From assembly GCA_012520435.1 (NCBI GenBank), contig JAAYOI010000007.1:964-64963 (forward strand): a stretch of DNA of 64,000 bases, in the 5' to 3' direction. This document shows, piece by piece, positions 3,561 to 29,595 of the stretch. The DNA is from Mollicutes bacterium (GTDB taxonomy: Bacteria; Bacillota_I; Bacilli_A; RF39; UBA660). Numbering within the stretch: position 1 is the stretch's first letter; each line of letters opens with the position of its first letter. Position numbers and translations under genes: made by a program. The notes under the pieces were generated by a model, which had not been told where the DNA came from, did not search any database, and saw only the letters and a program-made list of their open reading frames with translations.

Positions 3561-4025
3561 ATGAAAAAAATTTTAATTTTATTAATGTTAATTTTAATAA
3601 CTGGATGTACTAATAACAATGAAAAAAAATATTATGCTTTAGTTAAAGAACTAAAGCAAATTGAAACAACAACTATTAATATCCCTTTTGACATAACTAT
3701 TGTTTTAGATAAAATAACAGATAATGAAATTGTTTATAACGCTGTTATTGATAATGCTCAAGAAGAAATCAAAGATGTAGTTGCTTTAGTTACTAATGAT
3801 CAAGTAACTAATAAAATGTATCCAAGTATTGGTATTTTTGATAAAAAAATAAAAATTGTTCCTAGTCATAAAGAAATAAATGATGATAGTGTTAAAGGTA
3901 TTGCTTTAGTAGGATATTTACCTTTTGATAAAGAAATAGAAGAATTTAGTGGTATTTTTAAAGTTTATGTTGAGTTTACTTTAAAAGGTAAAAGACAAAA
4001 AATATATTATATATACAAAATATAA
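3561..4025 (+). CDS. hypothetical lipoprotein
   Basis: Signal peptide with lipobox (LILITGC). No recognisable domain. Confidence 0.45.
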   Translation: MKKILILLMLILITGCTNNNEKKYYALVKELKQIETTTINIPFDITIVLDKITDNEIVYNAVIDNAQEEIKDVVALVTNDQVTNKMYPSIGIFDKKIKIVPSHKEINDDSVKGIALVGYLPFDKEIEEFSGIFKVYVEFTLKGKRQKIYYIYKI

Positions 4026-24851: not shown

Positions 24852-25732
24852 AATCAGGATTTGTTAGTTTAGTGGGAAGACCTAACGTTGGTAAATCCAC
24901 TTTACTTAATAGTATTATTGGTAAAAAAATTGCGATTATCTCTGATAAACCACAAACAACAAGAAATCTTATTCAAGGGATTTATAATGAAGAAGATACC
25001 CAAATTGTTTTTGTTGATACACCAGGTATTCATAAACCTAAACATAAATTAGGTAAATATTTAAATAAACAAACATACTATACTATTAATGATGTTGATG
25101 TTATTGTTTTTTTAATTGATGGTAGTGAATCTTTAGGGCCTGGTGATAAATATGTTATTGAAAAATTAAAAGAAGCAAATAAACCAGTTATTTTGGCTAT
25201 TAATAAAATTGATAAATTAAATAAAGATGAAATTTTGTTAAAGATTGATGAATACAAAGATTTATATAATTTTCAAGAGATAGTACCATTATCTGCTTTA
25301 AAAAATGATAATGTTGATACTTTAATTAAAGTTATCAAAAAATATTTACCAGATACAATTAAATATTATGAAGATAATGGAGTTACAAATAAGCCATTAG
25401 AATTTATGATGGCTGAAATTATTCGTGAAAAAGTATTAATGTTAACCGAAGAAGAAGTACCACATTCGGTTACATGTGTTATTGAACATTTTGAAAAAAA
25501 AGATGATATTTATACAATAAATGCTACTATTATTGTGGATCGTGAATCTTTAAAAAAGATTATTATTGGTAAAAAAGGTAATAAAATAAAAGAAATAGGA
25601 ATTTTATCAAGACAAGATTTAGAAAGCCTTTTGGGTGGAAAAGTATATTTAGATTTATATGTTAAAACAATAAAAAAGTGGCGCAATAAAGAGAAATATT
25701 TGGCAGAATTTGGCTTTAATAAATTTGAATAA
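24848..25732 (+). CDS. era: GTPase Era
   Basis: G1 GRPNVGKSTL, G3 DTPG, NKID. C-terminal KH domain. Overlaps cdd by 4 nt. Confidence 0.92.
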   Translation: MKSGFVSLVGRPNVGKSTLLNSIIGKKIAIISDKPQTTRNLIQGIYNEEDTQIVFVDTPGIHKPKHKLGKYLNKQTYYTINDVDVIVFLIDGSESLGPGDKYVIEKLKEANKPVILAINKIDKLNKDEILLKIDEYKDLYNFQEIVPLSALKNDNVDTLIKVIKKYLPDTIKYYEDNGVTNKPLEFMMAEIIREKVLMLTEEEVPHSVTCVIEHFEKKDDIYTINATIIVDRESLKKIIIGKKGNKIKEIGILSRQDLESLLGGKVYLDLYVKTIKKWRNKEKYLAEFGFNKFE

Positions 25733-26131: not shown

Positions 26132-26869
26132 ATGGAAATAAAAAAGATTGAAGGAATAATCATAAGTGAAAAAGATTATAGTGAAACAAGTAAGATTTTA
26201 AATATTATTACCAAAGATTATGGTATCATTAGTGCGATTGCCAAAGGTTGCAAATCTTTAAAAAGTGAACTTAGAAGTGTAAGTAATAAACTAACTTATG
26301 GTTATTTCAATCTTTATTACAAAGTGGATAAATTATCCACTTTGATTAGTGTTGATGTTATTGATAATTTCCGTAATATTAAAACGGATATTAAAAGAAT
26401 TAGTTATGCAAGTTATTTATTAGATATAACTGAACAAGTAATGAAACAAAGTACGAGAAATGATATTTATGATTTATTAATAAGTAGCTTAATTAAAATT
26501 AATGAAGGTTATGATCCGATGGTCATTACCAATATTTTAGAATTAAAATATTTAGATTATTTAGGTGTTATGCCTATTATTGATCGATGTGCGATATGTG
26601 GTTCTAATACTTCTATTATAACTTTATCAAGTTCTAAAGGTGGATATATTTGTAGTAAGTGTTATACTAATGAAAAAAGAGTTAGTTCTAAAACAATTAA
26701 AATGCTTAGAATGTTTTATTATGTTGATATATCTAAAATATCTAAGTTAGATATTAGTGAAGAAGTAAAAAAAGAAATAAATACTTTTTTAGATGAATAT
26801 TATGATCAATATACCGGTTTATATTTAAAAAGTAAATCTTTTCTAAAAGGCTTAAATAAAATATGTTAG
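26132..26869 (+). CDS. recO: DNA repair protein RecO
   Basis: OB-fold N-terminus. Zinc ribbon CAICGS...CSKCY. 245 aa. Positioned after era/yqzL. Confidence 0.82.
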   Translation: MEIKKIEGIIISEKDYSETSKILNIITKDYGIISAIAKGCKSLKSELRSVSNKLTYGYFNLYYKVDKLSTLISVDVIDNFRNIKTDIKRISYASYLLDITEQVMKQSTRNDIYDLLISSLIKINEGYDPMVITNILELKYLDYLGVMPIIDRCAICGSNTSIITLSSSKGGYICSKCYTNEKRVSSKTIKMLRMFYYVDISKISKLDISEEVKKEINTFLDEYYDQYTGLYLKSKSFLKGLNKIC

Positions 26870-26877
26870 GAGATATT

Positions 26878-27321
26878 ATGGCTGAATATAAATATTTAGT
26901 AGTTGCTTTTACAACATTAGTTTTAGCCCAATCAATTAAATTTACAATTGAATCAATTCGCGATAATAAATTAAAGTGGGGTAGATTCTTTAATGGTAGT
27001 GGTGGTATGCCTAGTTCTCATAGTTCATTTACTTTTTCACTGGCCATAATGCTAGGTTTTAATGAAGGCTTTACTTCTCCCTTATTTGCAATCGCCTTAG
27101 TTTTTTCATTAGTGGTTGCTTATGATTCGATGGGTCTTAGAAAAGAAAGTAGTAAGCAAGCAGAAGCAATTAATAAAATAGTTGAAGAATTTATTAATCG
27201 CCATTATAAAATTGGAATTAAGCATTTAAAAGAAGAATTAGGACATAATCCTATTGAAGTAATTGCCGGTATGTTTTTAGGTTTTCTAACAAGTAGTTTT
27301 TTTACATTTGTAGTTTTTTGA
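26878..27321 (+). CDS. divergent PAP2 family protein (YuiD-like)
   Basis: GGMPSSHSSF aligns with B. subtilis YuiD GGMPSSHSAA. C-terminal LGHNPIEVIAG matches LGHQPIEVFFG. Start set at MAEYKY. Confidence 0.8.
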   Translation: MAEYKYLVVAFTTLVLAQSIKFTIESIRDNKLKWGRFFNGSGGMPSSHSSFTFSLAIMLGFNEGFTSPLFAIALVFSLVVAYDSMGLRKESSKQAEAINKIVEEFINRHYKIGIKHLKEELGHNPIEVIAGMFLGFLTSSFFTFVVF

Positions 27322-27365
27322 TAATATTTAGTAATATGTGTTAAATAAATATGATACATTATTAG

Positions 27366-27448
27366 CACACAAATTGATTGTGGTGCGAAAAAATGCATAT
27401 AATAATAATGCTACTATTGTAGCAAAAAAAGCTGGTGATTCCCACCAA
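27366..27448 (+). ncRNA. possible degenerate ToxI-like repeat RNA (type III antitoxin remnant)
   Basis: Noncoding stretch upstream of toxN containing three loosely related direct repeats (attattagcacacaaattg / attgtggtgcgaaaaaatgc / attgtagcaaaaaaagctgg), followed by a terminator. The arrangement fits a toxI-toxN locus, but the repeats are irregular and degenerate. Confidence 0.25.
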
Positions 27449-27468
27449 TAAGAGGAAATGAAAGAAGA

Positions 27469-27499
27469 GACCAGAGAGCACACTCTAGTCTTTTCTTTT
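27469..27499 (+). terminator. intrinsic terminator between the toxI-like region and the toxN-like ORF
   Basis: gaccagag-agcaca-ctctagtc hairpin (one mismatch) followed by TTTTCTTTT. Confidence 0.55.
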
Positions 27500-27547
27500 G
27501 GTTATTTTTAATGTATAATAAGTACAATAAATGGTGGTGATAGAATC

Positions 27548-28042
27548 GTGAAAAATTTTAGAATTGTAAAAGTTGATCATGAATATTGTGATTATTTAAG
27601 AAAATTTGATAATAAAGTTTGTTATAATAAAGGCAGTAAAGAATTAAGACCATTTATAGGTATTTTATTTACTGTAAATAACTATGAATATTTTGCGCCA
27701 TTATCTAGTCCTAAAGAAAAACATAAAAAAATGAAAAATACTTTAGATTTTGTTAAAATAGATAATGGAAAATTAGGGGCAGTTAATTTTAATAATATGA
27801 TTCTTGTTCAAAGTATCAATTATAAATTAATTGATTTAAAATAAAAAACTGATAATTTAAAAGAACAAAAATATATTAACTTATAATCGCAATTACTTTG
27901 GTTAAATAGAAATAAAAGGATTGTTAGAGGAAAAGCAATAAAACTATATACCAAATACAAAGATAAAACTTTACCAAAAAATATAATGGATAGATGTTGT
28001 AATTTTCTTTTGTTAGAAGAAAAATGTAAAGAATATAATTAA
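27548..28042 (+). pseudogene. toxN: toxN/AbiQ-family type III toxin (endoribonuclease) gene with two in-frame stop codons
   Basis: GTG start. N-terminal 98 codons MKNFRIVKVDHEYCDYLRKFDNKV...RPFIGILFTVNNYEYFAPLSSPKEKHKK...NNMILVQ match AbiQ/ToxN (MKFYTI...YL..FD.KV...AFIGIV..I.G..YLAPLTSPK..H...MIP). In-frame TAA stops at 27842-27844 and 27884-27886. The same frame continues to 28042 (...KAIKLYTKYKDKTLPKNIMDRCCNFLLLEEKCKEYN), restoring the full ~165-codon family length. Confidence 0.65.
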
Positions 28043-28047
28043 TCTTA

Positions 28048-28078
28048 TTGACAATTATATATTTTTAAGGTATATAAT
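28048..28078 (+). promoter_or_regulatory. sigma-A promoter of the glyQS leader
   Basis: TTGACA (28048-28053), 17-nt spacer, TATATA/TATAAT. Confidence 0.6.
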
Positions 28079-28210
28079 AAATGTAACTTATATATCAATG
28101 CGATGATGGGGTTGGAATCCCGGAGCAATATACTAAAAGCGATTCTTCTAGAATAAGTAAGGTGGAACCGCGGGGTAACTCGTCCTTACAACTATTCTGG
28201 AAGTTTTTTT
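28079..28210 (+). promoter_or_regulatory. T-box riboswitch leader (Gly-specific, short glyQS type)
   Basis: T-box sequence AAGGTGGAACCGCGG at 28158-28172. A long terminator helix (ttctagaataagtaagg / ccttacaactattctggaa) followed by TTTTTTT at 28204-28210. The track ORF from 28162 runs through this leader; the true start is 28225. Confidence 0.7.
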
Positions 28211-28224
28211 ATAGGAGGGGTAAA

Positions 28225-29595
28225 ATGAATTTAGAAAAAATTGTTAATTTATGTAAACAATATGGATTTATTTTTCAAGGTAGTGAAATTTATGATGGAC
28301 TTGCGAATACTTGGGATTATGGACCTTTAGGAGTGGAATTAAAAAATAATATTAAAAAAGCATGGTTAAAAAAGTTTGTTCAAGAAAATCCTTATAATGT
28401 TGGTATGGATAGTGCAATTTTAATGAATCCTAAAACATGGGAAGCTAGTGGACATTTAAGTAATTTTAATGATCCATTAATTGATTGTAAGGAATGTAAA
28501 ACAAGGCATCGTGCCGATAAATTGATTGAAGAATTTACGGAAGGAAAAATTACAGTTGATGGTTGGTCAAATGAAAAATTAATTGAATATATTAAAGAAA
28601 ATAATGTAAAGTGTCCAAAATGTGGTAAAGTAAATTATACTGATATTCGCCAATTTAATTTAATGTTTAAAACTTTTCAAGGAGTTGTTGAAGATAGTGC
28701 TAATACGATTTATTTGCGTCCAGAAACAGCTCAAGGTATATTTGTTAATTTCTTAAATGTTCAAAGAAGTATGCGTTTAAAAATACCTTTTGGCATTGCT
28801 CAAATAGGTAAAAGTTTTCGTAATGAAATAACGCCAGGTAACTTTATTTTTAGAACCCGTGAATTTGAACAAATGGAATTAGAATTTTTCTGTAAACCAG
28901 GAACCGAATTAGAATGGTTTAAATATTGGAAAGATTATTGTTATAATTGGTTATTAAGTTTAGGAATTAACAAAGAAAATATTCGCCTTCGCGATCACTC
29001 AAAAGAAGAATTAAGTCATTATTCAAATGCAACAACTGATATTGAATATAAATTCCCATTTGGTTGGGGAGAATTATGGGGGATTGCTAGTCGTACCGAT
29101 TATGATTTAAAACAACATCAACTTTTTTCTAAAAAAAGTATGGAATATTTAGATCCCGAAACTAATGAAAAATATATTCCTTATGTTGTTGAACCTAGTT
29201 TAGGTGCCGATCGAATGATTTTAGTTATTTTATGTGATGCTTATGATATTGAAACATTAGAAGATGGAAGTGAAAGAGAAATCATGAAATTCCATCCTAC
29301 TTTGGCTCCATATAAGGTTGCTGTTTTCCCATTAATTAAGAAAAATCATTCAGAAAAAGCTAAAGAATTATATCAAATGTTAAGTAAACATTTTATGGTT
29401 GTTTATGATGAAACTGGCAATATTGGTAAAAGATATCGTCGTCAAGATGTTATTGGAACACCATTTTGTATTACCGTTGATGATGAAACTTTAAATAATA
29501 ATACAGTAACAATTCGTGATCGTGATACGATGAAACAAATAACTTTATCAATTTATGAAATTATAGATTATCTAAAAGGAAAAATAGAATATTAA
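28225..29595 (+). CDS. glyQS: glycine--tRNA ligase (homodimeric GlyQS type)
   Basis: [37 protein letters not shown]-terminus. Class II motifs and the zinc-binding CKECK...CPKC insertion. RBS GGAGGGG upstream. Confidence 0.92.

Follow-up and report, generated by a model that had tools for sequence, protein, structure and literature searches.

A probable ToxIN remnant between yuiD and glyQS in a Mollicutes bacterium

In a stretch of 64,000 nucleotides from a Mollicutes bacterium (assembly GCA_012520435.1, contig JAAYOI010000007.1, positions 964 to 64,963 of the forward strand; hereafter "the window", with positions counted from its first letter), an open reading frame of only 98 codons (27548–27844) resembles the N-terminal part of the endoribonuclease ToxN, the toxin of type III toxin-antitoxin systems. 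By the definition of Blower et al. quoted in PMC5086642, a type III locus has a ToxN homologue with a terminator ahead of it and, ahead of that terminator, a tandem array. The question raised by this locus is whether it encodes a short protein, an active toxin with misread or decoded stop codons, a regulatory RNA without a toxin, or a system that has been lost. As judged from sequence comparisons, the locus is, with a probability of about 0.9, a recently inactivated chromosomal ToxIN (type III toxin-antitoxin/abortive-infection) module. Pseudogenised toxin-antitoxin loci are commonplace; in the literature, nothing specific was found on toxN pseudogenes, and no characterised member of the toxN subfamily represented in the window was found.

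The toxN reading frame and its lesions

The toxN frame begins with a GTG behind the Shine-Dalgarno sequence GGTGGTGAT and consists of 98 codons, a TAA, 13 codons, a second TAA, and 51 codons closed by a TAA at 28040–28042 (coordinates of all features are collected in Table 1). Over its 165 codons, frame 1 of this region contains three stops, whereas each of the other five contains 7 to 33. Translated with the stops masked, it is matched by the Pfam family ToxN_toxin (PF13958) with 151.3 bits (E 3.4e-44; curated cut-off 25) over profile positions 2–159 of 159, and the 51 residues past the second stop, taken alone, are still recognised by the C-terminal part of this profile (32.9 bits, E 8.9e-8). 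PADLOC assigns the read-through translation to AbiQ (E 3.5e-32), and four solved chains are matched: ToxN of Bacillus thuringiensis (4ATO) best, with E 2.1e-22 and residues 8–163 aligned, then ToxN of Pectobacterium atrosepticum (2XD0; E 6e-13) and of E. coli (7D8O; E 5e-11), and AbiQ (4GLK; E 2.3e-8). The first-pass annotation, made from the DNA letters alone, had proposed just this, a ToxN/AbiQ toxin with two in-frame TAA codons and family-like sequence beyond them, to be checked by a profile search and by alignment with AbiQ and ToxN structures; both checks agree with it.

Relatives were sought in 5.8 billion protein clusters at E ≤ 1e-10. The search yielded at least 2,424 proteins, the best of them 60–70% identical, 161–200 aa in length (mostly 166–173) and carrying PF13958; no closer intact allele, above 70% identity, was present in these clusters, and none of the GTDB representative genomes matched belongs to the species of the window. 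Identity to cultured relatives, and to those carried on plasmids or phages, does not exceed 47%. The 80 best intact relatives from species-representative genomes (L012–L091) served to measure conservation, and 18 relatives were aligned with the window toxN. All 80 frames are uninterrupted and have about 164–174 codons, with not one internal stop among them, which argues for a nonsense-inactivated toxin, as had been claimed, and not for a short protein. The first stop of the window toxN stands at a variable alignment position (T/S/K/G/A), the second where most of the 18 have Lys, and both are one substitution away from AAA. The window frame also lacks one codon present in all 18 aligned relatives, and in the NFNNMIPV motif it has leucine (P86L) for a proline that is 100% conserved in the 80 relatives. 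This is its only deviation in 63 columns conserved at 95% or more among the 80, in which intact members deviate at 0–5. Apart from its lesions, the window toxN appears to be as family-like as intact members; with a single one of the 63 conserved columns changed and a coding-type codon-position pattern retained, the decay would be recent, which the first-pass annotation had also suspected.

That pattern emerges from comparison with the closest intact protein, P0001 (167 aa, 70% identity), encoded in GCA_964465805.1 at the locus named L011. There, an intact toxN lies directly 3′ of the matching DUF212/yuiD gene, behind ybeY-dgkA-cdd-era-DUF1653-recO, so that an intact copy in a related genome, which the earlier note had advised looking for, exists at the same site; around the window locus and in ten contigs matching it (see below) the gene order is cdd-era-DUF1653-recO-DUF212(yuiD)-toxN-glyQS-sepF-divIVA. 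Between the window and L011, identity at codon positions 1, 2 and 3 of toxN is 0.81, 0.85 and 0.73, a coding-type pattern that era, recO and yuiD also show, and the flanking proteins are 61–71% identical, that is, not more conserved than toxN (70%). The same site, the matching identity of the flanks and the codon-position pattern all point to vertical inheritance of the module at this site and to purifying selection on the window toxN for most of its divergence from L011, with inactivation only recently. In about ten metagenomic loci that are more distantly related, era-recO-glyQS occurs but toxN is absent, and none of the other 79 toxN loci examined lies in an era-recO-yuiD/glyQS neighbourhood, which suggests that a conserved housekeeping cluster received the module as a lineage-specific insertion, in line with the small insertion between the yuiD-like gene and glyQS envisaged at first.

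What could still be made from the interrupted gene can be judged from the residues known to matter in ToxN, namely the catalytic K33, T52, S53 and K55 and the RNA-holding Y110 and Q117 (PMC8860590). The catalytic four align with R34, S53, S54 and K56 of the window toxN, all encoded ahead of the first stop; Gln117 aligns with the invariant Q115, encoded past both stops. A 98-residue product thus keeps R34/S53/S54/K56 and lacks the equivalents of Tyr110 and Gln117 as well as the C-terminal RCCNF-LLEEK region. Since Gln117Ala abolishes the toxicity of E. coli ToxN (PMC8860590) and Q115 is encoded only beyond both stops, the product is expected to be non-toxic.

The antitoxin RNA and the loss of its array

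Upstream of toxN, loosely repeated units of about 20 nt had been described as the repeats of a ToxI antitoxin. They are not there: Tandem Repeats Finder (TRF; minimum score 30), applied to 27200–28200, returned no array but an 8-nt A-rich run inside toxN, and the direct repeats near the array are only two-copy matches of 14–17 nt, each with one copy over the toxN Shine-Dalgarno region, and nothing beyond chance. Instead, the region holds one 36-nt ToxI-type unit (27425–27460) and a degenerate stub. A covariance model, R1, built from 18 units and run unfiltered over the whole window, found exactly this one unit with 35.9 bits (E 3.6e-14), a score within the range of units from intact loci; the next best match is a 10.8-bit A-run. 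The hairpin and T-run terminator of the earlier description is present, not immediately before the GTG as had been stated but 48 nt upstream of it.

In L011 the region upstream of toxN consists of a tandem array of 35 nt × 3.2 (consensus TAAAAAAAGCGGTGATTCCAGCCAAAAATGGAACT, TRF score 189) followed by a hairpin and T-run. Aligned with it, the window is 83–89% identical across leader, unit 1 and terminator (83% over 27361–27460, 89% in the terminator), with a 69-nt gap that corresponds to two units. This two-unit deletion (69–70 nt) maps between 27453 and the stub at 27461–27467, and the two units appear to have been lost by a clean repeat-to-repeat deletion; the suspicion that the array is eroded therefore proved right, two of three units being deleted relative to L011. 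In the stub, the A-tract AAAAAAG has become AAAGAAG, by which the presumed 3′ cleavage site of the remaining unit would be damaged.

Where relatives had enough sequence for the 500 nt upstream of toxN to be read, nearly all carry an array of 34–37-nt units, most often × 3.2, and a pattern count gave exactly three full units in 65 of the 80 best relatives. Apparent exceptions in copy number are truncated contigs or arrays with AACAAAG boundaries. An intact toxN with a single-unit array was sought among the relatives and none was found, nor any array below 2.2 units. The tandem array by which type III loci are recognised is hence present in L011 and nearly all relatives, and reduced to a single unit in the window. 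No known ToxI/antiQ family was matched in Rfam by window positions 26500–29000 at E ≤ 1, where only the T-box leader of glyQS appeared, and the intact L011 array gave chance-level matches only.

As a side observation, the copy number 60–260 nt upstream of toxN in the 80 relatives is strikingly uniform, with three full units and a 0.2 stub, and 2.2 or 4.2 in a few; three full units per transcript would supply exactly three monomers for one 3:3 complex.

The fold of the unit was examined with 144 units (118 of them distinct) from 51 related loci found by R1; a first MAFFT alignment misregistered the 3′ helix, and a model-based alignment was used in its place. Helix 1 (xGGUG/CA-or-G-CCx′) is paired in 100% of cells, with compensatory changes. 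In helix 2, formed by a loop NCC with a downstream GGN′, the pair 18–53 occurs as UA 76, CG 14, GC 13, AU 8 and UG 7 times, with no unpaired cell. The covariation score of the pseudoknot is 0.132 against 0.047 in shuffles, with none of 500 shuffles as high, and lies far above slid controls, with the caveat that the alignment was fitted to helix 2 (not helix 1). Both helices can be formed by the window unit (UGGUG/CACCA and UUCC/GGAA), and the 150 nt comprising leader, unit and terminator fold with −42.1 kcal/mol (z = −4.69). The antitoxin unit is thus predicted to be a compact H-type pseudoknot; solved type III antitoxins are likewise pseudoknots. The units are bounded by A-tracts, and these are likely processing sites because AbiQ cleaves at A^AAA and ToxN of B. 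thuringiensis at A^AAAA (PMC7781912).

Some further peculiarities of the arrays were seen. The sole "direct repeat" in the vicinity of the array has one copy in the 5′ part of the unit (AAAAAAAGCTGGTGAT, 27423–27439) and the other in the ribosome-binding region of toxN (AATAAATGGTGGTGAT, 27525–27541); every ToxI unit of the subfamily carries a Shine-Dalgarno-like GGTGA, and the resemblance is probably a coincidence. L060 has a solitary extra toxI-like unit (1113–1147, 25.2 bits) about 250 nt upstream of a regular three-unit array. In L076 the architecture is atypical, in that the array (3615–3719) stands 269–380 nt upstream of toxN, with an inserted promoter-like site and an apparent small open reading frame, beginning MKLTKLNKAVLDDF, in the 270 nt past it. 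Just upstream of the toxI promoter of L018 (about 3595–3690, −405 to −310 from toxN) there is a separate tandem repeat of 50 nt × 1.9 (AAATGTTAATCGCTTCCAGGTGGTGCGAGCTATAAATGATCCCGGTCGAG, TRF score 171), which may be the end of another repeat-RNA locus.

State of the module and rival explanations

The ancestral locus, as L011 and about 80 intact relatives suggest, would have consisted of a sigma-70 promoter, a structured leader, a toxI array of 35 nt × 3.2, a terminator and toxN. ToxN would cut the toxI precursor in the A-tracts at the unit boundaries, and each unit of about 35 nt would form a small H-type pseudoknot that binds and blocks ToxN, probably in a triangular 3:3 complex by analogy with solved ToxIN complexes; were the supply of toxI lost, for instance upon phage infection, the RNase would be freed. 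In its present state the locus has two nonsense codons, P86L and a codon deletion in toxN, two of three full toxI units gone, a mutated A-tract and no upstream −35 box. At most 98 residues of ToxN would be made, and because of these combined lesions in toxin, array and promoter, the module appears to be dead as a toxin-antitoxin pair as well as a defence system.

As to the order of events, loss of the toxin may have preceded drift of the array; alternatively, a collapse of the array, by slippage or unequal recombination, may have come first and selected toxN-null survivors. In experiments, antiQ requires no fewer than 1.8 of its 2.8 units, and with 0.8 it is inviable (PMC5086642). The 1.2 units of the window, with a damaged 3′ A-tract, lie below this benchmark, and the window locus is the sole family member examined with a broken toxin.

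Several points weigh against reading the locus as dead. Leader, unit and terminator are still 83–89% identical to L011, which fits recent decay, yet selection on the RNA is possible as well. The 64 kb seen are only part of the genome, so that a UAA suppressor tRNA or a second, intact toxIN may lie elsewhere. The population sampled is near-clonal (three SNP sites in 6 kb) and as such uninformative on relaxed selection, and the ancestral copy number of 3.2 is a parsimony argument from one sister genome and the wider family.

The first of these points leads to the rival that survives best, unlikely as it is: the toxin may be dead while the cassette of promoter, leader, single unit and terminator (27352–27499) is kept as a functional orphan ToxI small RNA, which might act in anti-addiction or as a decoy against the ToxN of incoming plasmids or phages of the same subfamily, or in some other regulation. 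The unit does keep both pseudoknot helices and its 35.9 bits are in the range of intact loci, the region folds strongly (z = −4.69), a promoter-like TTGATT-18-TATAAT remains, and the 83–89% identity to L011 compares with 56–73% at third codon positions of the compared genes. Equal conservation is, however, also what recent decay predicts; moreover, the family promoter lacks its −35 box here, the 3′ A-tract needed for release of a monomer is mutated, antitoxins of the antiQ type need at least 1.8 units (PMC5086642), and no target ToxN is known in the 64 kb of the genome seen. If true, the cassette would represent a type III antitoxin that occurs in nature with a single unit and with no toxin of its own.

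It is less probable still, and in fact quite improbable, that the stops are decoded (by reassignment of UAA, programmed read-through or a suppressor tRNA) and that the cell makes full-length, active ToxN in low, regulated amounts. In favour of this, the frame continues in register past both stops, the 51 codons downstream are family-like, and low expression of the toxin, by read-through of the terminator, is a design feature of type III loci (PMC5086642). TAA is nonetheless the normal stop codon here, ending 26 of the 38 open reading frames of at least 200 codons in the window, and no tRNA gene occurs within the 64 kb; on these two grounds reassignment of the code and a suppressor were rejected. 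Internal stops occur in 0 of the 80 relatives, the invariant proline is lost too, and an array below the minimum tolerated for antiQ (PMC5086642) would be lethal if the toxin were active.

That toxN is intact and its two TAA codons are sequencing or assembly errors can practically be dismissed, for although the rest of the frame is perfectly preserved, the very same 98-aa product is predicted from 24 contigs of a public assembly collection, the toxN stretch is unchanged in all ten of those read, from separate accessions, and decay shows independently in the loss of two toxI units, in P86L and in the missing codon. These ten (L001–L010) were assembled from metagenomes, of biogas fermenters among others, and have separate ENA/Logan accessions, although two appear to stem from one run. 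All ten carry both TAA codons; on this account assembly error was rejected, and the stops stand as the first-pass annotation had read them. Eight of the ten are 99.9–100% identical to the window over 3–6 kb, L001 and L009 being 99.1% and 97.2% identical owing to divergent stretches elsewhere.

In the ten contigs, the only polymorphism near the toxN locus is 27387 G>A, which is found in five of them and lies in a small leader hairpin; it shifts the window sequence toward the consensus of relatives (TGCAAAAA). The divergent stretches lie inside glyQS, era and DUF1653, are densely strewn with mismatches and indels, and correspond to window positions 28896–29030 in L001 and L009, and to 25376–25571 and 26036–26075 in L001 as well. 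They could be strain-level recombination tracts or the product of chimeric low-coverage assembly; the coverage of L001 is 1.2.

Known systems, promoters and neighbouring features

Among the features of the ToxIN family, the window has the ToxN domain, the terminator and a unit capable of forming a pseudoknot, and lacks an uninterrupted frame of about 165–195 codons and the tandem array. It appears to be a decayed member of that family. In sequence and in the geometry of its repeats, it comes nearest to ToxIN of B. thuringiensis and AbiQ/antiQ. The former, on plasmid pAW63, has the closest solved toxin (4ATO), and its array of 34 nt × 2.9, its terminator and its toxN match the layout proposed for the ancestor (PMC5086642); its cleavage falls within an A-tract, A^AAAA (PMC7781912). 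Unlike pAW63 ToxIN, the copy in the window is chromosomal, in an era-recO-yuiD/glyQS housekeeping cluster, a pseudogene and left with 1.2 units, and the repeat sequences are, as far as testable, unrelated at the primary level, with no Rfam match. AbiQ/antiQ of Lactococcus lactis pSRQ900 (4GLK) shares the Pfam and PADLOC family, an array (35 nt × 2.8), a terminator and cleavage in adenine-rich sequence (PMC5086642, PMC7781912); its toxin is more distant from that of the window (E 2.3e-8), and the system is plasmid-borne and functional in phage defence. The ToxIN systems of P. atrosepticum and E. coli (2XD0/2XDB, 7D8O) have the fold and catalytic motif in common, with a pseudoknot antitoxin that forms a heterohexamer with the toxin, but differ in their repeats (36 nt × 5.5), their cleavage (AA^AU or GAAAU) and their proteobacterial plasmid hosts. 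CptIN and TenpIN, the other two type III families, share the generic layout of repeats, terminator and toxin; membership in either was ruled out, as the toxin matched no Pfam family besides PF13958.

The understanding of type III systems is not changed by this locus, and its value lies mainly in annotation: the 98-aa "ToxN" should be recorded as a pseudogene and the RNA upstream as a toxI remnant. It also illustrates, from nature, how the toxin and the antitoxin half of a type III module can decay together. The comparison, moreover, defines a large and uniform ToxIN subfamily, of at least 2,424 proteins, in uncultured low-GC bacteria of gut, rumen and biogas plants, which is nevertheless of known design; its stereotyped antitoxin (34–37 nt × 3.2) has no Rfam model, and R1 could seed a curated family.

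Table 1. Features of the toxIN remnant in the window
Feature	Position	Strand	Basis or remark
Degenerate extended −10 box TGATACATT (family: TGnTATATT)	27352–27360	+	Alignment to L011 and 20 family upstream regions; putative promoter
Leader hairpins CACACAA/TTGTGGTG, then GC..GC	27366–27396	+	RNA fold; conserved with L011
5′ hairpin GCTAC-TATT-GTAGC, directly before the antitoxin unit	27410–27423	+	RNA fold and L011 alignment; in many family loci
Surviving ToxI-type antitoxin unit: A-tract, then GCUGGUGAUUCCCACCAAUAAGAGGAAAUG	27424–27460	+	Covariance model; orthologous to L011 unit 1
Degenerate partial unit AAAGAAG (AAAAAAG in relatives)	27461–27467	+	Alignment to L011 and family upstream regions
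Rho-independent terminator: stem 27468–27491, T-run 27492–27499	27468–27499	+	Fold and scan; conserved with L011
Spacer with −10-like TGTATAAT (27512–27519) and Shine-Dalgarno GGTGGTGAT (27533–27541)	27501–27541	+	Putative functions
toxN pseudogene	27548–28042	+	165 codons including terminal stop; read-through translation and profile matches
toxN lesion: P86L (CTT)	27803–27805	+	
toxN lesion: one-codon deletion after codon 111		+	
toxN lesion: TAA, codon 99	27842–27844	+	
toxN lesion: TAA, codon 113	27884–27886	+	

Immediately downstream, the promoter of the glyQS T-box (TTGACA, 28048–28053) starts 6 nt past the toxN stop, and the Rfam match to the T-box leader (28035–28190) overlaps the final toxN codons; its 40.4 bits, against an Rfam gathering score of 93, are expected for short glycine T-boxes. 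An identical TTGACA lies 3′ of toxN in L011 (5518–5523). The genome of that locus (contig CAYXLG010000024.1, which holds L011/L012) is labelled "uncultured Muribaculaceae bacterium"; the order yqfD-ybeY-dgkA-cdd-era-recO and the AT-rich sequence of the contig point to Bacillota, and the label or the binning is probably wrong. A search of NCBIfam with the toxin and the yuiD-like protein gave no family within the E-value limit of 0.001.

The promoter of the family reads TTGACx-17-TGnTATATT. Its −35 box (TTGAYT/TTGACA, 17 nt upstream of the −10) has no counterpart in the window, where a second promoter-like site, TTGATT-18-TATAAT at 27374–27403 (10/12 in a promoter scan), overlaps the leader hairpins. 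The structured leader (27361–27423) recurs in L012, L013, L015, L017, L018, L060 and L067 as CAYAAGTGATTATGTTGTGCAAAAnTGCATATAATAnTAnTGC, followed by a GCTAC..GTAGC-type hairpin; one compensatory change was seen (CACAcAA/TTgTG in the window, CACAtAA/TTaTG in relatives), and its conservation may reflect a stabilising 5′ structure or promoter DNA. Between terminator and toxN, an 18-nt stretch of the spacer, TTATTTTTAATGTATAAT, is identical in L011. At this place, some family loci have a strong promoter of the sigma-70 type (L029 at about 3890–3960, with a perfect TTGACA-17-TATAAT, and L052, L058, L050 and L028); scores of at least 10/12 were obtained there in 11 of 61 loci, against 3.6% of shuffles. 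The internal promoter of such loci differs from the textbook design, in which a single promoter serves both antitoxin and toxin by read-through of the terminator.

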